Source: Parcubacteria group bacterium GW2011_GWD2_38_11 | Lineage (GTDB): Bacteria > Patescibacteriota > Minisyncoccia > Moranbacterales > GWC2-37-73 | Direction of reading: 5' to 3' | DNA length: 60,994 nucleotides | NCBI GenBank assembly: GCA_000992325.1 | Contig: LBTZ01000001.1 | Coordinates: 1-60,994 of the forward strand | Shown here: piece by piece, positions 5,634 through 59,259 of the stretch | Position numbering within the stretch: the first letter of the stretch is position 1 | Layout: every line of letters starts with the position of its first letter | Notes under the pieces: model-generated | What the model was told of the DNA's origin: nothing | Databases searched by the model: none | Seen by the model: the letters and a program-made list of their open reading frames with translations, nothing else | Position numbers and translations under genes: made by a program

Positions 5634-5737
5634 AGCGAGGGTATTTTTTATTTTTTCACTAAAAACAAGTCACCTTGGCGTTATGTCAAAAGTTGCAATT
5701 GTTTTTCCGTGACAAAAATAAAATATACCCGAGCGAT
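5634..5737. mobile_element. ~100-nt long-hairpin repeat element (family E), copy 1, in the glyQS 5' UTR
   Basis: Arms gggtattttttattttttcac / gtgacaaaaataaaatataccc. Conserved apical segment ccttggcgttatgtcaaaagttgcaatt. Related copies at 20159-20265 and 53094-53197, partial copy at 46296-46378. Confidence 0.7.
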
Positions 5738-5780: not shown

Positions 5781-5810
5781 GGCTGGATTCCCGTTTTCAC
5801 GGGAATGACA
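5781..5810. repeat. Family A palindromic unit (ggattcccgttttcacgggaatgaca)
   Basis: Hairpin ggattcccg-tttt-cacgggaat plus gaca tail. Same unit at 19578, 23722, 41395, 43107 and 51917. Confidence 0.8.
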
Positions 5811-6166: not shown

Positions 6167-7387
6167 ATGCATAGCAGAAACTTCAAAGCGGGCAGTTCGC
6201 GCCCAACGCGCTCAAGAGCGCCATTCCAAGGCGGACAAAAAAATTCATTCAATAACCAAGGTGGTCGCAAAAAACGTTTTACTGGGTCATATATTGATAT
6301 CAGTCGTTTTATCAATAAGGCTGCCCCAATTGTAGAAGCTGAGGCCTATATCCCAGACACTATTTTTGCTGATTTCAAAATAGAAGAATCAATAAAGAAA
6401 AATGTTATTGCTCGTGGATATTTACACCCAACGCCAATTCAAGATAAAACCATCCCCCACATTCTCGAAGGAAAAGATTTGATTGGACTAGCCAACACTG
6501 GCACAGGAAAAACTGGAGCATTCTTGCTTCCGATGCTTGATAAGATTATCAAAAACCCAAGTGAAAAACTTTTGGTCGTGGTTCCAACTCGCGAACTAGC
6601 TATTCAGATTCAAGAAGAATTCCGCGCTTTTGCTGCTGGACTTCGCATCGGATCAGTGGTGGTGGTTGGTGGTGCCAACATTCGAACTCAAATCGAATGT
6701 CTTCGCTCACGCTACAATGTTGTGATTGGAACACCAGGACGACTCAAGGATTTGATCCAACGCAAAAATCTTCATCTCAACACTTTTGCAAATGTGGTTC
6801 TTGATGAAGCAGACAGAATGCTCGATATGGGATTTATGCCTGATGTGCGATATTTGCTTTCACTTGTTGCCCCAAAAAGACAGACTTTATTTTTCTCAGC
6901 AACACTAGCGCCAGAAATTGAAAAATTGATTCAAGAATTTTTGGTTGATCCAATTAAAATTTCTATCAAGACACGAGAAACTTCTGCCAACATTGATCAA
7001 GATGTTGTGCGTGTCAAACCGGGAGAAGATAAAATTGAAGTCTTGCAAGATCTTTTGCGCAAAGCAAATTTTTCAAAAGTTTTGATTTTTTCTCGAACCA
7101 AACACGGAGCTGAAAAACTTTCAATCATTTTGAGCAAAAACGGATTCAAAGCTCAATCAATTCACGGAGACAAATCACACGCCAAAAGACAAAAGGCTTT
7201 GAAACTTTTCAAAGAAAATTATGTTGAAATTTTGGTAGCAACCGACGTTGCTGCTCGCGGATTGGACATTCCAAATGTTTCGCACGTGATCAACTTTGAT
7301 GTGCCTGCGACGTATGATGATTATGTTCACCGTATCGGACGAACCGGTCGCGCCGGCAAAACCGGAACAGCTCTGACTTTTGTGTAA
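6167..7387 (+). CDS. DEAD-box ATP-dependent RNA helicase
   Basis: Q motif GYLHPTPIQ, motif I ANTGTGKT, PTRELA, DEAD (VLDEADRM), SAT, HRIGRTGRAG. The N-terminal Arg/Gly-rich tail starts at the ATG at 6167; the ORF track's upstream start at 6128 is less likely. Confidence 0.9.
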   Translation: MHSRNFKAGSSRPTRSRAPFQGGQKNSFNNQGGRKKRFTGSYIDISRFINKAAPIVEAEAYIPDTIFADFKIEESIKKNVIARGYLHPTPIQDKTIPHILEGKDLIGLANTGTGKTGAFLLPMLDKIIKNPSEKLLVVVPTRELAIQIQEEFRAFAAGLRIGSVVVVGGANIRTQIECLRSRYNVVIGTPGRLKDLIQRKNLHLNTFANVVLDEADRMLDMGFMPDVRYLLSLVAPKRQTLFFSATLAPEIEKLIQEFLVDPIKISIKTRETSANIDQDVVRVKPGEDKIEVLQDLLRKANFSKVLIFSRTKHGAEKLSIILSKNGFKAQSIHGDKSHAKRQKALKLFKENYVEILVATDVAARGLDIPNVSHVINFDVPATYDDYVHRIGRTGRAGKTGTALTFV

Positions 7388-16433: not shown

Positions 16434-17231
16434 TTATGCTTCTTTAATTGCTTTGTATGCGTAAGAAAGAATAAGCCTTAGGGATGAAATTGCATCATCA
16501 TTTGCAGGAATTGGGAAATCAACGTGTGATGGATCAATATTTGTGTCAGCAATTGCAATCACAGGAATACCCATTTTCTTAGCCTCAGTAATCGCCAAAC
16601 TATCTTCCTTGATGCTTGCAGCAAACACCGCTCCTGGCAGATCTGCCATATTTTTGATTCCACCCATTCTTTTTTCCATTTTTTCCAATTCTTCCATTTT
16701 CTTCATTTGCTCAAACTTTGTATATTTTTTGAATTCTCCCCGAGCAAGCATTCCTTCACTGTCAACCAAATATCGAGTTCGGCCGCGAATCACTTTGAAG
16801 TTTGTAAATGTTCCACCAAGCCATCTTTCACTAACAAATGGCATTTGCAGAGCTCCAGCCACGTCGCGCACAAGATCCTTGGCTTGAATTTTAGTTCCCA
16901 CAAAAAGAATGCTTTTACCGCTTTTTTTCACACTCACAAGAAAATCAAGAGCTTCTTGAATTTTTTCTTGTGTCTTTTGAAGATCAATAATGTTGATTCC
17001 TTTACGAGTTGTAAAGATGTATTCATCCATTTTTGGGTTTCTGCGGGCCTTTTGATGACCAAAATGCACACCGGCCTTCATCATTTCCTCAAGACTTTGC
17101 TCAATTTTAGACACATCAAGAGAAGCGAAATAGCTTTCTCGCCCCCCGCCTGCATCGCTATGCGAAGCATTGCGGGCAGGTTCTTTTTCCTCTGCAGCAG
17201 CCGGAGCTACTTGAGTAGTTTCATTTTGCAT
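16434..17231 (-). CDS. rpsB: 30S ribosomal protein S2 (N-terminal extension uncertain)
   Basis: The core MMKAGVHFGHQKARRNPKM...IFTTRKGINIIDL is canonical S2. The first ~40 codons include a family B palindrome (ARNASHSDAGGG). An in-frame GTG at ~17111 would give a conventional N-terminus. Confidence 0.9.
   Translation of the reverse strand: MQNETTQVAPAAAEEKEPARNASHSDAGGGRESYFASLDVSKIEQSLEEMMKAGVHFGHQKARRNPKMDEYIFTTRKGINIIDLQKTQEKIQEALDFLVSVKKSGKSILFVGTKIQAKDLVRDVAGALQMPFVSERWLGGTFTNFKVIRGRTRYLVDSEGMLARGEFKKYTKFEQMKKMEELEKMEKRMGGIKNMADLPGAVFAASIKEDSLAITEAKKMGIPVIAIADTNIDPSHVDFPIPANDDAISSLRLILSYAYKAIKEA
17144..17180. repeat. Family B palindrome (cccgcctgcatcgctatgcgaagcattgcgggcagg) inside the annotated rpsB 5' end
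   Basis: Near-perfect inverted repeat. Copies at 19781, 41463, 46314, 55592 and split at 49863/49951. Confidence 0.85.
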
Positions 17232-20158: not shown

Positions 20159-20265
20159 CAGTTCGTATACTTTTTATTTTTGCACTTAAAACAAGTCTCC
20201 CTGGTGTTGCTTTTAAAGGTTGCAATTGTTTTTCCGTGCAAAAATAAAAAGTATACGAACTGCGA
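20159..20265. mobile_element. Family E long-hairpin element, copy 2
   Basis: Arms gttcgtatactttttatttttgcac / gtgcaaaaataaaaagtatacgaac. Apical segment ...ggttgcaattgtttttcc. Confidence 0.7.
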
Positions 20266-27958: not shown

Positions 27959-28273
27959 AAGTTTAACAGTGATTAATAGAAATTAAGTATTTCCTCTGCT
28001 CTCAAAAGCAGTAATATTGGCATTATACAACCAACAAAATTAAAAGTAAACCCAAGGACAAGAAACAAAAAACAAGATACAAACATCAAACAACATTCGA
28101 AGCAACAACTATTTTAAGCGTTTGAGTTTTGTAATTTTGGATTTGTTTGGTTATTGTGTCTTGTATCTTGGTTATTCCCATCAGGGTCAATTGCATTTGA
28201 ACGAAAATTACTATATTATATAGAAAGATACTTGAGGGCTTTTTATGCCAAATTATGGTCTCAGAAAAAACCA

Positions 28274-30889
28274 ATGTCCCCAAGAAACTCCGATAAAAAC
28301 AAAGATGTGATAAAAGAACTGGAAAAAACAATTTCCCCAATTTTGGTTGTCAATAATTCTTCCCTAAAACCATATGTGGAATTATTTGAATACGCACCAG
28401 AAAACATCTACCAGCAACCACTTGGCAGTCTTGTTGGTTTTTTCGAGGTCAAAGAATTCTCTGATGAATCTGCTTATGTTGTAAACTTTCTAACATCTGT
28501 TTTAAAAAAAGAATATTACATCAACCCCAAAAGACCGGTCACTGAAAGCCTGGACAGTGCCCTGCATAAAGTGAATATGGCGCTGTCTGAGTTGGCAAAA
28601 CACGGAAACGTTGAATGGTTGGGCAAAATAAATGCTGCCATATGCGTGTTGGAGAAAAACAACGCTCATTTTAGCGTTTCAGGCGATGCCAAAATCTTCT
28701 TATACCGCAATCAGGGACTTTCCGAAATAAGTGAAGATCTTGCATCAGATTCTCTTGAACCACATCCTCTTAAAACATTTGTTAATGTTTCCAGTGGACG
28801 GCTTGAAAAAAATGATCGAATGCTGATAACGTCAGCTGATATTTTTCATATTCTTCCAACCAGTGAAATAAAAAAGAACTTCCAACGCTTCGAGGGAGAT
28901 AAATTTGTACAATTTTTAAAAACCGCGCTTTCAAACCAAATAGAAATGATTGTGTCGATAGTTGTCGAAATGACAGAAGTGATTCCAGTCGTCACAACAA
29001 AAGCGCTGCCTCGCAAAAAATCTCCTCAAGCAGCCAATGCCTTTAGCGAACAAACCTTTGCCAACACATCGCCCGCAAACAATTTGGCGCAGGAGAATGA
29101 GCTTGCTATGGCTATGGAAGCAGAAGAGAATGAGCAGGAATATACCGATGAAAAAACCGGACATATCTACATCCAAGGAGAAACCATCGCAAGCCAAGAA
29201 GCTGCTCATGCTCAAATGAATCTCTACTGGGATATGGTCAAAGAAAAAATATCCCAAGGATCATACCTTACAAAAAATGAAATTAGAAAACGTTTTTCTT
29301 TATACAAAAAACAATTAGCAAAGAAAAAAGCGCTTCGCAAAATTGAAAAAGAACAGCGCGAGCAGCTGAGGGCTGAGGAAAATAAGCGCCTTGAAGAAGA
29401 AAGAGTTCTCCAGGAAGTTCAGCGCGAGCAACAACTTGCCCAAGAAGCGCAACTTCAGCAAGTTCGCCTCAAAGAAGAAAGTGAACGCCAGCAACTTTAT
29501 TTGGAGCAAGAAGCTCTTCTTGCAAAAACAGCCAACTCCAAGAAAAAGTTGGAAACAAAAATCAAAATTAAAGACAATTACACGGAGACACTCTCTTCAA
29601 GCTCACAACTAAGCTTTAAAGAAAAACTTCAATTGGCAAAGTTAGAACAGCAAGGAAATGCTGTCATTGATTTGAAAAACAAAACCACCCAGGAAGCTGA
29701 GATCTTCGAAGAAGAAATTATCACTGAGCCAGAAATAAAATTTGAATCCCCTGAAAAACAATCAGAAGCAATGAAGCTCAGAACGTTAGCTTTGGAAAAT
29801 ATCAGCAAGATATTACCACTATCAAAAAAAATAATTGCTTATGCAAAAATTGGACTAAACAAACTTTCTTCAGCAATAACAAAAAACGAAGCCGGTGTCG
29901 CAAAACCAAATCAATTAACAAGCATCATAACTCCTCATTTTTCAAAAATTGGAAAATTATTCTCACATTTTTCAGGAAAACAAAAATTGTTCATTCTTTT
30001 TGCACTAGCTCTTATTTTTATCGCACCACTTTTTATTGTGCGCTTCTTAAATAGGCCAAAAGCTCCAACGATCGTTGAACTTCAGGATGCACCTATGACT
30101 CAAATTGGAGCATTGGCAAATGAAAAAGGTATTGATTTTAACACGCAAATTCAAACAATTTTATCAAACTCAAATATCGTTACCACCCTTATCGCAAACA
30201 ACAACCCAACAGTTGTGACCAAAAACAGCGTCATTGTTTTGCAAAATAATCAACCAAAAGAATTTCCGATTCCTGCTGACTCTGGAGTTGTTGCTGCCGC
30301 AACATATATGAAAGATTTATCACTAATTTTGATTTTCACAGATAGCAACAGGATTCTTTCCTTCAGCCCAATTTCAGAAAAATTTTCAAACAACAATATA
30401 AATTTATCAAATCTTTCATCAGCAAATCCGATTGGAACATATTTGACATATATGTATGTGCTTGATCAAAAAACCAATCAGATTTATCGTTTCCCGCGCG
30501 CAGACGGTGGATTTGGAGAATCAACAAATTGGCTGAAAGATTCAACACCTCTTGCAGATGTTTCAGAAATAACAATCGACGACAACATTTACGCAGTTGC
30601 CAATAATAAAGTTTTAAAATTCTTCAAAGGAAAAGCTGTGGATTTCACACTTGAATCATCAACCACCCCAGTTAATTTTGACAAAATATATACAACTCCA
30701 GATCTGCAAAACTTCTACGCACTAGACACACAGAACTCGCGTCTAGTTTCATATAGCAAAGACGGCAACATTCTTACACAATACCACAATGAAGCGTTTA
30801 AAGACGCAATTTCATTATCAGTCGACGAACAAAACAAACTCGCATACATTGCAACTTCACAAGGTTTAATTTCACTTGAACTCCAATAG
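28274..30889 (+). CDS. Large membrane protein: N-terminal PP2C-like (possibly degenerate) domain, Glu/Gln/Arg-rich coiled coil, one TM, C-terminal beta-rich domain
   Basis: AAICVLEKNNAHFSVSGDAKIFLYRNQGLSEISED and GRLEKNDRMLITSADIF mirror PP2C/SpoIIE strand motifs. The coiled coil spans about 29300-29560. TM helix LFILFALALIFIAPLFIV. The start at 28274 is tentative. Confidence 0.6.
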   Translation: MSPRNSDKNKDVIKELEKTISPILVVNNSSLKPYVELFEYAPENIYQQPLGSLVGFFEVKEFSDESAYVVNFLTSVLKKEYYINPKRPVTESLDSALHKVNMALSELAKHGNVEWLGKINAAICVLEKNNAHFSVSGDAKIFLYRNQGLSEISEDLASDSLEPHPLKTFVNVSSGRLEKNDRMLITSADIFHILPTSEIKKNFQRFEGDKFVQFLKTALSNQIEMIVSIVVEMTEVIPVVTTKALPRKKSPQAANAFSEQTFANTSPANNLAQENELAMAMEAEENEQEYTDEKTGHIYIQGETIASQEAAHAQMNLYWDMVKEKISQGSYLTKNEIRKRFSLYKKQLAKKKALRKIEKEQREQLRAEENKRLEEERVLQEVQREQQLAQEAQLQQVRLKEESERQQLYLEQEALLAKTANSKKKLETKIKIKDNYTETLSSSSQLSFKEKLQLAKLEQQGNAVIDLKNKTTQEAEIFEEEIITEPEIKFESPEKQSEAMKLRTLALENISKILPLSKKIIAYAKIGLNKLSSAITKNEAGVAKPNQLTSIITPHFSKIGKLFSHFSGKQKLFILFALALIFIAPLFIVRFLNRPKAPTIVELQDAPMTQIGALANEKGIDFNTQIQTILSNSNIVTTLIANNNPTVVTKNSVIVLQNNQPKEFPIPADSGVVAAATYMKDLSLILIFTDSNRILSFSPISEKFSNNNINLSNLSSANPIGTYLTYMYVLDQKTNQIYRFPRADGGFGESTNWLKDSTPLADVSEITIDDNIYAVANNKVLKFFKGKAVDFTLESSTTPVNFDKIYTTPDLQNFYALDTQNSRLVSYSKDGNILTQYHNEAFKDAISLSVDEQNKLAYIATSQGLISLELQ

Positions 30890-31116
30890 GCTCATTTCCA
30901 CATTTCTTTTTCCGCAAAAGAAACGTGGAGCAAAGAAAACTCGCACCTGATGAAGGTACTGTGGCAAAAACTTCGCTCTTCGCTAGAATTTACACTTCGC
31001 TCGTAGTCTACTGACTCTCGCTACGTTTCAAAATTCTTTAACGCTCATCACTCGTTTTTCGCCTACGTACTTCATATGGTGCAAAGGGAATGCGGGATGC
31101 AAATACAATAAATCCA

Positions 31117-31145
31117 TTGACTCAACATCTACGACACGCTATATT
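31117..31145 (+). promoter_or_regulatory. Sigma70-type promoter of the orphan RNA
   Basis: TTGACT, a 17-nt spacer, then TATATT. Confidence 0.6.
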
Positions 31146-31151
31146 TTAAAC

Positions 31152-31503
31152 ACCACGGAGAGGTGAATTTTGTTGAGGCAAATTGCGGCGGATTAGATAC
31201 CTGCAAACGTGATTGCCAGCGCAGAATGCTGGATCTATGCGCAAGTCGGAAAGCTGTCGTCAATGAAAAAACAGCAGACGCCATGCATAACAAAGGCCAC
31301 TGCCCGACCCTGTATCTTTACGGGGATTTCCAGAATCTGCGTTTTATTACGAAAATATCTTGGCTAATCTTAGTAATGAGCCGTAAAACGGCCATGAAAA
31401 TCTTGGCGCGCCAACTATTGCATACAGTGGAGAACCCAGGAGGTTCCGCGAAACTGCATGCTGGGATGATTTTTCGCAAGCCACCTCTCCGTGGCTTTTT
31501 TTC
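31152..31503 (+). ncRNA. Orphan ~350-nt structured RNA, class unknown
   Basis: 12-bp closing helix cacggagaggtg (31154-31165) / cacctctccgtg (31482-31493), then a U-run. There are many internal hairpins (ccagc..gctgg, gccgt-aaa-acggc, gcatacagt..actgcatgc, gaacc..ggttc). GC is clearly above the surroundings. The overlapping 148-aa ORF is not protein-like. Confidence 0.6.
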
Positions 31504-31674
31504 TTTTTATGCACAAAAAAATCCACGTACCTTTAGGGCACATGGACACTATCTTTATATTATACAACTAAATAATCAAAAAGTCAATATAGGCACAAAA
31601 AACGGCTAGCTATAGCCGTTTTTAGGTGTAAGAATTTTTCACGGTAGAGACGCATTGCAATGCGTCTCTACGTG

Positions 31675-34161
31675 TTAGAAAGATGATTCTTTCATCACAC
31701 TTCTTGCAAATCTGGCGCGTTCCATGATCTCACGGTTTACAATGGCTGCGTCGCGACCATATTTGAGGCGTGAGAGCTCTTTGAGATAATTAGCGGCCTC
31801 TTGATTCCCTCGAGTTGGCGGATAAAATTTAATATTGAATGGTTTGGAAAGTTCGCCATTAACCAGCATCCGAGTAAAACCACTATAGTTATCCACATTA
31901 ACCAAATCGTTGGCGGTAAAAATAGGTTCAAATTGTTTTTCCAAAAATTCTGCATCCTCCGGTCCAACTCGCAGCGCCACCATTGAACCAACATTACCAA
32001 ACACGGCTTTGGAAATTTCTTCCTTGAGCTGTCCAATGAATTGATGAGCTATAATCAAACACAAGCGATATTTTCGCGCTTCAGAAAGAATTTGAGAAAT
32101 CGATTCGGTTGTGACATTTTGAAATTCATCCAAATAAAGATAAAAATCGCGACGCTGATCTTCAGGCATATCTCCGCGTGCCAAAGCATTCATTAAAATT
32201 TTTCCCACAATAACCATTCCCAAAAGATGAGCGTTAATTTCACCAATTTTTCCCTTAGAAAGTTTCACCAGTAAAATTTTTCCAGAGTCCATCACTTCGC
32301 GAAAATTAATTGTGCTTTTTTGTTGAGCGATAATTGGACGCATCATATCATTAGAAACAAACGTGGTGAGTTTGGAAGTGATATACGGAACCATATTGGC
32401 AAGTGCCGCTTCCCCGCCAGCCTTCTCAGCTTCTTTGATCCAGAAATCTGAAACAACAGGATTGTTGCATTTGGACAATTTCATTTTCCGAAAATCCTCA
32501 TCTGCCAAAACCTTGGAAATTTCCATAAGAGTTGAACCTGATTCTGGATCTTCCATAATAAGAAGCATTGCGTTTCGCACGTATTGTTCAAACATCGGAC
32601 CTCCCGTAGCTTTAAGATCATACAACTGATCAAAAATACCAATCATTTCGTTGATAACAAAAGTTTTTTGCTCGGGATGGCTTGGATCATATTCAAGCAT
32701 ATTAAGTCCAAATGGTCGTTCCATATCAGACGGATCAAACACGATCACATCTTCCGCGCGCTCCTTTGGAATGGCGGTCAAAATATCCTCAATAGCATCG
32801 CCGTGTGGATCAATAAAACAAAAACCCCTGCCGTCGCGCGCATCTTGTTTGGCCATTTCTTGCAAGAAATTTGACTTACCAACACCAGTTTGACCAATGG
32901 TATACAAATGCCTTCTTCTGTCGCCATCACTAAGCCTGATATCCGTTTTCACTCCGCGATAATCATTATAACCAAGCACTAAACCTTCTTTTGGTATATT
33001 GAGTGGTGGCGGTGCAGCTCCAGCTTTCAGCCATTTAATTTTTGGCGTTTCAGTGGTGGAAATTGGAAAATGAAAAATGCTGGCAATTTCTTCTGTAGAC
33101 AAAATGATAGAATGCTCTTCGTCAAAATTTCTGAAGATATAATCAAAAGATATTTTCTTGGATTTTATTCTTTTTTGCACCACAAAATGATTGACGTCGT
33201 GATTTTCAAATTGCGCAAAAGAATTTTCCATATGCGCCAAGACTTCATCCGCCTTTTGCTGACTCATCGCAGACGCAAGCAAGCGAACATTCACCTTAAA
33301 TCCAGCCTTTCCAGATTTTGCTTCAATTTTCTTTACAAGCTCCTGTTCTTCCGGAGTAAGCTGCACTGAGTCCTTGTGCATAATTTCTTCCTTTGGCTTG
33401 TTTTGAATCACTTGCACCACACCTTTTCCAAGCTCCATTGCAATCGAATTTGAATGTGCATCCTTAAGCTGTTTTCCTTGTTGCATCTTGTGTGCAATTC
33501 CTCTTCCCAATTTTCGCCAATTTTTTCCCGCAGGACGCAAAACAATTTGAATAGCTGCACCTTCCCCTTCTGTTTGCAATTTACTAAGCGCATTTGAAAT
33601 TTCATTGAGCGGGTCAACATCAATATTTTCATATGTAAGAACTGGCAAAGCATATGAACGCTTAAGTCCAAGTGTTGCAGCAGCAGTAAAACTCCCCGGT
33701 GAAAAAATTGTATAGTCAGGAATTTTTTCAATAGAAGAATGAGGGAAATATGAATGAACTTGCTTCTCAATGCTGTCACGAAATTTCTTCGGCACTGCCA
33801 AATAAAAAGAAATTTCTTCATTCCCACACGGATTGGCAATTTCTAGTGCCATATATGGCTCACTATACAAAAAATGAGCCCAGAGTGATTTTTTTTCTTT
33901 AATATTGGAAAGTGTGGTGAGCAATTGCTCCATAGCACCAATTTCTTCTTTCCAAGCTTCTCCATTTTCATTTCGCTCACCTCTTTCTTTGAAAATTTTT
34001 GTCACCCGCACAACTTCAAGATCCATATTCATTGAACGGTTGATTTGAGCGCGATAATTCAAAAAACTTCGCACAATCAAAAAAGCCCCACTCAAAAGAG
34101 TCAACGTGCCAAAAACCCAAAGCAAAGGAATCAAAATAACATTAAGGTCAAGAGTATTCAT
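31675..34161 (-). CDS. TM-anchored P-loop translocation ATPase of the FtsK/HerA/VirB4-VirD4 superfamily
   Basis: 828 aa. N-terminal TM helix. Walker A GQTGVGKS, then FIDPHGD. Walker B YLYLDEFQNV. ARKYRLCLIIAHQ (RK..TQ-like motif). A ~400-aa N-terminal domain of unknown function. Confidence 0.75.
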   Translation of the reverse strand: MNTLDLNVILIPLLWVFGTLTLLSGAFLIVRSFLNYRAQINRSMNMDLEVVRVTKIFKERGERNENGEAWKEEIGAMEQLLTTLSNIKEKKSLWAHFLYSEPYMALEIANPCGNEEISFYLAVPKKFRDSIEKQVHSYFPHSSIEKIPDYTIFSPGSFTAAATLGLKRSYALPVLTYENIDVDPLNEISNALSKLQTEGEGAAIQIVLRPAGKNWRKLGRGIAHKMQQGKQLKDAHSNSIAMELGKGVVQVIQNKPKEEIMHKDSVQLTPEEQELVKKIEAKSGKAGFKVNVRLLASAMSQQKADEVLAHMENSFAQFENHDVNHFVVQKRIKSKKISFDYIFRNFDEEHSIILSTEEIASIFHFPISTTETPKIKWLKAGAAPPPLNIPKEGLVLGYNDYRGVKTDIRLSDGDRRRHLYTIGQTGVGKSNFLQEMAKQDARDGRGFCFIDPHGDAIEDILTAIPKERAEDVIVFDPSDMERPFGLNMLEYDPSHPEQKTFVINEMIGIFDQLYDLKATGGPMFEQYVRNAMLLIMEDPESGSTLMEISKVLADEDFRKMKLSKCNNPVVSDFWIKEAEKAGGEAALANMVPYITSKLTTFVSNDMMRPIIAQQKSTINFREVMDSGKILLVKLSKGKIGEINAHLLGMVIVGKILMNALARGDMPEDQRRDFYLYLDEFQNVTTESISQILSEARKYRLCLIIAHQFIGQLKEEISKAVFGNVGSMVALRVGPEDAEFLEKQFEPIFTANDLVNVDNYSGFTRMLVNGELSKPFNIKFYPPTRGNQEAANYLKELSRLKYGRDAAIVNREIMERARFARSVMKESSF

Positions 34162-34331
34162 TTATGTTTTATATTTATTTGAGTTTTATGCCTTTATTTT
34201 GTCTGAAAATTTTCAATAATCAATTTTCAATTTTCATTGAATTTACAATGATTCAATGATCAATTCCTGGTTTGAAAATTTCAAAATTGAAAATTGATTG
34301 TAAATTGAAAATTGTGAATTGAAAATTGAAC

Positions 34332-34772: not shown

Positions 34773-34921
34773 AAATTTCTAATTTCTAATTTCCAATTTT
34801 TTGCCCCAAGCTTATCCCTTGAGGGCTAAACAATTTCCAATGAATAAATTTCCAAATGTTTGAAAATTAATGAATTGAAAAATTGAAAATTAATTGAAAA
34901 TTGAAAATTGTGAATTGAAAA

Positions 34922-35236
34922 TTATTTGTTAGCATTCATCATCTCTCCTCTAAATTCCTCGATAATCCCCTGCACCATTTCATCATAATCATTGATTCTC
35001 TCCTTGAAAAATTCTTCCACCTGCGCTGGAGAGACTTCGCCTTCTGACATTTTTTCATATTCTTCGCGACCCTCTTCTCCAAGCTTATCCATTGTTTCCA
35101 GAAAAATTCTCTTTAGCAAAACTTCAGTCATCTTAATGATGAGTTCATTTTGTTTGTCCTGGGAAAGCGTGTCGATTCCCATATCTTTAATCAATTGACC
35201 CAGAGCCTCTGCTTGCGCAGTATTATGTTCTTCCAT
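34922..35236 (-). CDS. Acidic helical hypothetical protein (104 aa)
   Basis: ORF in the same-strand block, rich in Glu and predicted helices. Confidence 0.5.
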   Translation of the reverse strand: MEEHNTAQAEALGQLIKDMGIDTLSQDKQNELIIKMTEVLLKRIFLETMDKLGEEGREEYEKMSEGEVSPAQVEEFFKERINDYDEMVQGIIEEFRGEMMNANK

Positions 35237-53093: not shown

Positions 53094-53197
53094 AGTGAGC
53101 ATACTTTTTATTTTTTGCATTGGAATAATCCTCCTTGGCGTTATGTCAAATAGTTGCAATTATTCCACCGCACAAAAATAAAATGTATGCGAACGAC
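53094..53197. mobile_element. Family E long-hairpin element, copy 3, in a 5' UTR
   Basis: Arms gagcatactttttattttttgc / gcacaaaaataaaatgtatgc. Inner helix ggaataat/attattcc. Apical segment ccttggcgttatgtcaaatagttgcaatt. Confidence 0.7.
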
Positions 53198-58962: not shown

Positions 58963-59259
58963 ATATTTTTATATTAAAAAGTTTTATTTTTGCAATTATA
59001 TTATACCAATTTTGAAGGTTTTTCGCAATAAATCATACCAACAATTTTCAATAACCAATAATCAATTTTCATTCAATTTTCAAATATTTAAATTTACAAT
59101 AAGTAATTTAATTTTGTCATTAATTCATTGAGATTTTATTGGAAATTGCCTGCCCGGCCAGGGGAAATTGACCATTGGTAATTTAAAAGGTTCGCAATAA
59201 TTGCGAACCTAGTTGGCATAGAAAATATAATTTTACAATAAAACAAAAAGCGAAGTTTT

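Follow-up and report, generated by a model that had tools for sequence, protein, structure and literature searches.

Comparative genomics has uncovered several orphan structured RNAs that are restricted to particular lineages, among them the raiA, OLE, ROOL and GOLLD motif RNAs (Weinberg et al. 2010, PMC2864571). The present analysis concerns a predicted non-coding RNA of ~350 nucleotides (nt) at 31151-31503 (+) in a 60,994-nt stretch of DNA (the window; contig LBTZ01000001.1, positions 1 to 60,994) from Parcubacteria group bacterium GW2011_GWD2_38_11, a member of Candidatus Moranbacteria. Like the orphan RNAs, the Moranbacteria RNA is predicted to be a stand-alone, non-coding transcript of several hundred nt with covarying helices, conserved junction and loop bases and a limited range. 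It differs in matching none of them in Rfam 15, in its far narrower range of five sequences in one clade, in having no association with phage or tRNA loci that was seen, and in being missing at its locus in sister species. These orphan RNAs are the nearest analogues, sharing its general character only. The element is probably a gene for a structured non-coding RNA that is transcribed on its own and belongs to a family not described before.

Two other kinds of RNA gene resemble it in part. Ribonuclease P (RNase P) RNA and transfer-messenger RNA (tmRNA) have the same ~300-350 nt size, a branched interior and a helix that connects their 5′ and 3′ ends, but the Moranbacteria RNA lacks their conserved core sequences, a tRNA-like end and a tag reading frame, and is not at the locus in all relatives. 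Small RNA genes embedded with their terminators between convergent genes likewise have their own sigma-70-type promoter, an intrinsic terminator and convergent flanking protein genes. The Moranbacteria RNA is far larger and more structured than these, and its conservation is concentrated in a multi-helix junction, not in a single-stranded seed.

Homologues were sought by nhmmer, by motif and with a profile of the resulting matches at 80 syntenic loci, which were collected from species-representative genomes through the neighboring VirD4-like ATPase gene; contig look-ups for ATPase homologues added ~16 loci. The comparison covered ~105 syntenic Moranbacteria loci overall. Four further distinct homologues were recovered (L007, L009, L011 and L104), giving five distinct sequences with the window copy. 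The contig look-ups (12) contributed one new member only, L104. All five members lie in the same orientation in the same spacer, between a gene for a 911-amino acid (aa) protein and the ATPase gene. The homologues keep the promoter, the closing helix (P1) and the terminator in register while the interior has diverged to ~60% identity.

A consensus scan placed a sigma-70-type promoter at 31117-31145 (+), with TTGACT and TATATT boxes separated by 17 nt that match 10 of 12 consensus positions, in agreement with the first-pass annotation of this DNA, which had been made from the sequence alone. The promoter is present in all five members: a TTGAC(T/A) box is separated by 16-17 nt from a -10 box, which ends 7 nt before P1. 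Four of the five have TATATT as the -10 box, and L104 has a weaker CACATT. Because the -10 box ends exactly 7 nt upstream of P1, the closing helix starts at the predicted 5′ end of the transcript, with initiation expected a few bases ahead of P1. A terminator scan located an intrinsic terminator at 31478-31502 (+), consisting of the hairpin AAGCCAC-CTCTCC-GTGGCTT and a T7 run. The core hairpin GCCAC-CTCTCC-GTGGC, within 31478-31497, was part of the original description, and it is followed by T7-C-T5 rather than by the clean U8 described there. Both hairpin and U-run are kept in 5/5 members, with hairpin energies of -7.4 to -10.6 kcal/mol. The stem is GCCAC/GUGGC in the window copy and GUCAC/GUGAC in L104, a compensatory change that preserves the hairpin yet breaks the last P1 pair, which indicates that the terminator hairpin itself is under selection. 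G-U pairs, promoter and terminator all indicate the + strand. A conserved promoter at a fixed distance together with a conserved terminator points to an independent small-RNA transcription unit, whose predicted transcript is the promoter-to-terminator span given above.

P1 pairs CCACGGAGAGGTG at 31153-31165 (+) with CACCTCTCCGTGG at 31482-31494 (+). All 13 pairs are standard, one more than the 12 base pairs (bp) first reported for the closing helix, and the duplex energy in the window is -25.8 kcal/mol. Across the family, the first 11-14 nt of the RNA pair with the last 11-14 nt, and a G-C pair of the helix is replaced by A-U in L007 and L009. Nine of the 13 pairs are invariant, compared to a mean column identity of 58% over the whole alignment. 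The 3′ strand of P1 overlaps the terminator, where it doubles as the loop and 3′ half of the local hairpin. P1 has an energy of -20 to -28 kcal/mol versus -7 to -11 kcal/mol for the terminator hairpin, and dominates the predicted folds of all members. The first-pass annotation had proposed conformational switching on the grounds that the two pairings are mutually exclusive. Both pairings are conserved, and termination followed by refolding accounts fully for the arrangement. A switch between P1 and the hairpin is possible, but nothing demands one.

In the favored mechanism, the local terminator hairpin would form first and end transcription, and the released RNA would refold into the far more stable P1, sealing both ends and protecting them from exonucleases. 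The mature RNA would then act in trans, with the loop of hairpin P2 and the junction as probable recognition surfaces for a protein or other macromolecule. A role in trans, most likely in protein binding, is the best guess because there is no adjacent co-oriented gene to control.

Folding of the 354-nt stretch gave a minimum free energy of -117.1 kcal/mol with z = -3.64, and 0/100 shuffles were as stable. The z-scores of the members range from -2.45 to -5.75, and every member is more stable than its shuffles. The opposite strand of the same stretch is equally stable (z = -4.42), so folding energy alone cannot assign the strand. Helices were marked on an alignment of the five full-length sequences (the window copy, L007, L009, L011 and L104). 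The five helices P1, P2, P3, Px and Pj comprise 37 pairs, and 89.7% of the cells in these pairs are standard, compared to 37-46% in controls with the partners slid by 1-3 columns. Changes on both sides are found in 10/37 pairs, a count reached by 1/500 shuffles, and the covariation score of 0.281 was equaled by 0/500 shuffles. The 3′ core alone gives the same picture of pairing and covariation, and RNAalifold applied to the 3′ half independently predicted P3, Px and Pj. The signal in the alignment is consistent in each of the five helices, and the compensatory changes in them, like the homologues themselves, favor the structured RNA first proposed.

The conserved architecture is a three-way junction closed by P3 and bearing the hairpins Px and Pj-Py. 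P3 is a long-range helix formed by GAAGAAUC and GAUUUUUC; its 5′ strand at 31350-31359 (+) pairs with 31465-31476 (+), where the 3′ strand lies inside the conserved block CUGAUUUUUC, and two of its pairs have compensatory changes. This assignment comes from RNAalifold and covariation. Px at 31363-31407 (+) is a hairpin GCTAA ... TTGGC with an inner CCGTAAAACGG hairpin, and compensatory changes occur in 4/9 of its pairs. The junction strand GCGCCAAC at 31408-31415 (+) belongs to the near-invariant block GYGCGYCAAC. Pj is a 3-bp helix at the base of Py (31410-31412 with 31464-31466, +) with Y/R covariation: the Y of GYGCGYCAAC and the R of its 3′ partner are C-G in 2-3 members, depending on the alignment, and U-A in 2. 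Py, GCATACAGT ... ACTGCATGC at 31420-31461 (+), is variable in sequence, and a stem-loop occurs at this position in the single-sequence fold of every member. The best-conserved bases of the family are the P2 loop and the junction strands UUG, GYGCGYCAAC and RGRCU. The 12-nt palindrome noted at first sight, ttggcgcgccaa, is present at 31403-31414 but is palindromic in no homologue; it arises where one helix strand meets the conserved junction sequence. The region between P2 and P3 (31205-31349, +) forms a variable 5′ domain of branched hairpins that is poorly conserved and gapped in the alignment, and lies outside the consensus structure. It occurs as two subtypes, one in the window and L104 and the other in L007 and L009, with L011 less clearly placed.

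The P2 hairpin at 31188-31204 (+) consists of GCGG, the loop ATTAGATAC and CTGC. Its 9-nt loop, consensus AUYRGAUAC, is present in 5/5 members and is the most conserved loop of the family. The stem covaries, with G-C versus A-U at one pair and G-C versus G-U at another. The sequence GGATTAGATACC occurs once in the window. Loop and closing pairs together, GGAUUAGAUACC at 31190-31201, are identical to the 790 loop of helix 24 in 16S ribosomal RNA (rRNA), and GGAUUAGAUACC(C) corresponds to positions 785-797 of Escherichia coli 16S rRNA, including two closing G-C pairs and the hairpin context. P2 and helix 24 share the 9-nt loop AUUAGAUAC and their two closing G-C pairs. The match covers only 12-13 nt, or ~25 nt at 76% identity in L011, and is not significant, and the remainder of the RNA is unrelated to 16S rRNA. 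In L011 the likeness reaches ~19/25 nt, including GUCCACG at similar spacing after a one-base gap adjustment. In local alignments against E. coli 16S rRNA, 11-71 of 200 shuffles (5-35%) scored as high as the members. Descent from a 16S rRNA fragment was rejected on these scores, and no other co-linear likeness to 16S rRNA was found. Within the family, the loop varies at two positions: the equivalent of 16S position 789 is C in L104, and that of 790 is G in L009 and L011. A literature search for 790-loop mimics returned nothing relevant. The look-alike is a low-probability lead and not a finding.

Comparison of the whole window with Rfam 15 at the gathering score yielded three tRNAs elsewhere and no match in the RNA region. 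At E ≤ 10, the RNA region, L007 and L011 gave only noise, mostly terminator-like matches. ARAGORN found no tmRNA and only the three tRNAs in the window. Bacterial RNase P RNA (RF00010/RF00011) was rejected, there being no covariance match to the window copy, L007 or L011 at the gathering score or at E ≤ 10; the P4 and CR-I to CR-V motifs (GAGGAAAGUCC ... ACAGAA) are spelled by no invariant columns of the five-sequence alignment, and an ACAG...AACCC resemblance in the window copy is missing from the homologues. The RNA is not a tmRNA, for it has neither a tRNA-like end nor a tag reading frame and is matched by neither ARAGORN nor Rfam. Signal recognition particle (SRP) RNA and 6S RNA were discarded for want of a covariance-model match to the same three sequences, and the large ornate RNAs (OLE, ROOL, GOLLD, HEARO and raiA) for want of one at E ≤ 10. 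A 148-aa open reading frame (ORF) at 31163-31609 overlaps the RNA region. It has no Pfam match at E ≤ 0.01 and is unique to the window, the ORFs of the homologues being short, unrelated and in other frames or on the other strand, and the indels in the five-sequence alignment are not multiples of three. The ORF was rejected as a gene.

These comparisons uphold most of the first-pass annotation, which had found no RNase P P4, tmRNA or SRP signature and had regarded the ORF as non-protein. It had called for a comparison with Rfam, and no significant match was obtained for the window copy or two homologues. Its likening of the RNA to large ornate RNAs or ribozymes holds as an analogy of size, but no such family matches. 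It had also named in advance three results that would speak against its reading, namely a significant Rfam hit to a known housekeeping RNA, absence of homologues or covariation, and conservation of the ORF as protein. Since none of the three occurred, a stand-alone non-coding RNA of unknown class stands, supported by the conserved signals, the covariation, the lack of a shared ORF and the lack of an Rfam match. The RNA is a genuine new, narrowly distributed family, and what is new is the lack of a match to a known family rather than a mechanism.

The family is confined, within the sequence searched, to five lineages in one clade of groundwater Candidatus Moranbacteria (Patescibacteria/Candidate Phyla Radiation). 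A covariance model of the 3′ core recovered the five members and nothing else in 878 kb, and this model and the nhmmer profile detected no member beyond the five in ~0.9-1.0 Mb of related DNA. An exact-pattern scan of Joint Genome Institute (JGI) metagenome contigs gave 10 matches, of which two are real and identical to known members (L083 to L011 and L084 to L007) and eight are chance occurrences in coding sequence. The pattern is too strict and would miss L104, because the loop of this member is AUCAGAUAC. No copy was found in phage and plasmid collections by blastn, and viral contigs gave 0 matches in the exact-pattern scan and no ATPase relatives. The expectation of homologues across the Candidate Phyla Radiation is thus borne out insofar as homologues exist, but these are five sequences from one Moranbacteria clade only.

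The RNA gene was not found at ~100 other syntenic loci, a result that applies to this locus. It is missing at the syntenic site even from the closest relatives, L002 and L003, whose ATPases are 97-98% identical to that of the window. L002 lacks ~620 bp (~30890 to ~31512), and in L003 a 140-bp copy of a palindromic repeat takes the place of ~440 bp (~31107 to ~31546). The family of this repeat is ~91 nt long with 34-nt inverted ends and occurs in the window at 5642-5732, 20168-20258 and 53102-53192; the L003 copy at ~6605-6743 sits exactly at the site of the RNA gene in the window. In L008, the homologue of the 911-aa gene is followed immediately past its stop codon, at 7239-7268 (-), by the terminator sequence of the RNA, CCACCTCTCCGTGG, and a T-run. 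The RNA body is missing there, and the sequence is either the remnant of a deleted RNA gene or an ancestral terminator. On the ATPase identity matrix, genomes with the RNA gene are interspersed with genomes lacking it. This distribution agrees best with repeated loss of an ancestral gene, and at the least the RNA gene is not fixed at this locus in the clade. Because sister species lost the gene from this locus, the RNA is probably accessory rather than housekeeping.

Other explanations of the locus fare less well. The RNA could be a structured 3′ untranslated region of the 911-aa gene, or be processed from that messenger RNA (mRNA), with the terminator at 31478-31502 shared between them. The terminator scan revealed no convincing + strand terminator between the stop codon at 30889 and the RNA, the RNA gene begins only ~40 nt past that stop in L104, and the L008 arrangement has CCACCTCTCCGTGG and its T-run directly after the homologous stop. 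This origin is nonetheless unlikely: the promoter is kept 7 nt from P1 in 5/5 members although the surrounding spacer is unalignable or varies from ~40 to ~340 nt, P1 begins at the predicted transcription start, and an own promoter and read-through can coexist. Gram-positive small RNAs are known to target ribosome-binding sites through C-rich loops, and the invariant CCUCUC of the 6-nt terminator loop could in the same way bind the Shine-Dalgarno sequence GGAGAG of target mRNAs, with P1 acting as an on/off switch that masks the loop with an internal Shine-Dalgarno look-alike. The P1 strands are more conserved than pairing needs (9/13 pairs invariant), and both the P1 and hairpin conformations are conserved, as such a base-pairing RNA would have it. 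However, the terminator loop should be sequestered in the mature RNA because P1 exceeds the hairpin in stability by 10-18 kcal/mol, and the double constraint of P1 and terminator can by itself slow sequence change. No target was identified, and the conserved three-way junction and P2 loop are left unexplained, which makes this mode of action quite unlikely. An rRNA decoy would account for P2, which would mimic the helix 24 790 loop of the small-subunit platform, possibly together with the anti-Shine-Dalgarno-like CCUCUCC, and titrate a factor or toxin binding this platform, such as a ribosome-binding factor, an enzyme that modifies rRNA or a toxin directed at rRNA. The identity of GGAUUAGAUACC(C) to 16S 785-797 in hairpin context, the extended likeness in L011 and the standing of the P2 loop as the most conserved of the family agree with such mimicry. 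The idea is nevertheless of low probability given that shuffled sequences often score as high, that positions 789 and 790 vary within the family, and that neither other co-linear 16S similarity nor a known partner was found.

An element that functions as DNA is very improbable, whether a miniature inverted-repeat transposable element (MITE) or a transfer origin near the VirD4-like gene. The ends do carry the perfect 13-bp terminal inverted repeats expected of a MITE (31153-31165 / 31482-31494), presence varies among close relatives, other small palindromic repeats occur in these genomes (one in place of the RNA gene in L003), the neighbor encodes a VirD4/TraG-like ATPase and both strands fold equally well. 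The MITE was rejected because each locus has a single copy, its position never changes, and 0.88-0.98 Mb of sequence contained no other; a repeat search within the window likewise revealed no second copy. In L002 and L003, the missing segments begin and end outside the inverted repeats (31153 and 31494), a point against a transposable element. The interior has diverged to ~60% identity while promoter and terminator were kept, the internal helices covary and tolerate G-U pairs, and there is no match in the phage, plasmid or viral collections. A divergent housekeeping RNA (RNase P RNA, tmRNA, large SRP RNA or 6S RNA) or a real 148-aa gene is suggested by the size, the helix closing the 5′ and 3′ ends and the ORF that spans the region. 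This alternative is largely refuted and deserves next to no credence, with no Rfam match for three members at E ≤ 10, no tmRNA by ARAGORN, no P4 motifs in the invariant columns, the gene missing at the locus in the nearest relatives and ~100 syntenic loci, and an ORF that is neither conserved nor matched in Pfam.

Several points count against the independently transcribed RNA family as well. Five sequences give low statistical power and the shuffle control ignores their relatedness, so that the covariation numbers are indicative rather than proof. The consensus structure covers five helices only and leaves out the variable 5′ domain between P2 and P3, where a hand-derived consensus is unreliable. 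The transcript and both its ends are predictions from sequence only, and read-through from the 911-aa gene, which lacks a clear terminator, could also produce the RNA. The trans-acting, protein-binding role was reached by elimination. The scattered absences, which refer to this locus only, may also reflect relocation within RNA-negative genomes.

The Candidate Phyla Radiation makes up a large share of bacterial diversity and its members have tiny genomes. To our knowledge, almost nothing is known about non-coding RNAs in this group, and a literature search for such work returned nothing relevant. A ~350-nt RNA with a conserved junction that is retained under strong genome streamlining likely has a specific job. 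The new family would enter Rfam and would give metatranscriptomic and structural studies something definite to aim at. The very narrow range, the loss in sister species and the lack of a functional clue restrict how important it is. If the decoy idea were true, the RNA would be an accessory 'ribosome decoy' in ultra-small bacteria of the Candidate Phyla Radiation.

The ATPase gene at 31675-34161 (-) encodes a VirD4-like protein with TrwB/TraG-type coupling-protein domains in Pfam, 70-98% identical to proteins annotated as Candidatus Moranbacteria. The 911-aa gene on the other side of the spacer, upstream of the RNA, lies at 28154-30889 (+), and a Pfam search with its product gave no match. The two genes are convergent and the 786-bp spacer between them contains the RNA. 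This gene pair is kept across Moranbacteria with a spacer of -21 to 2884 bp (~60 syntenic loci among L002-L081 with both gene ends located). Unrelated inserts occupy the spacer in different species, and it acts like a hotspot at which small elements are gained and lost. G+C content is elevated in the RNA region as first described, but the rise is modest, 0.44-0.475 compared to 0.35-0.41 in the immediate flanks.

A minus-strand promoter-like site (TTGACT-17-TATAAT, 11/12 consensus positions) is located at 31521-31587 and is followed immediately by a terminator hairpin and T-run. It is kept in L002 and L003, both of which have no RNA gene at the locus. The site is probably part of the ATPase terminator region and may give a tiny antisense transcript.

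A second conserved non-coding element, 'U', lies at 30913-31105 (+), just upstream of the RNA promoter. Further copies were located at L003 6744-6964, L011 7391-7593, L013 6532-6720, L014 3739-3942, L015 6691-6866 and 6880-7065, and L103 4193-4372. Alignment of the eight copies (the window copy and seven in six loci) gave 30 predicted pairs and showed compensatory changes in 14; GCACC/GGTGC and GGCAAAAAC/GTTTTTCGCC are paired examples. Element U has no Rfam match. It is found with or without the RNA gene; in one case it lies beyond the ATPase gene, and in one it forms an inverted pair.

Elsewhere in the window there are two families of short, GC-rich, REP-like intergenic hairpin repeats on both strands, TGTCATTCCCGTGAAAACGGGAATCCAG and CCCGCCTGC...GCGGGCAGG, at 5783, 23722, 41395, 43161 and 51917 and at 17145, 19783, 41463 and 46315. 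Long AT-rich arrays of ATTGAAAATTG-like units, both direct and inverted, are present at 34208-34328, 34873-34924 and 59042-59121. These arrays are intergenic and lie within a putative type IV secretion gene cluster.

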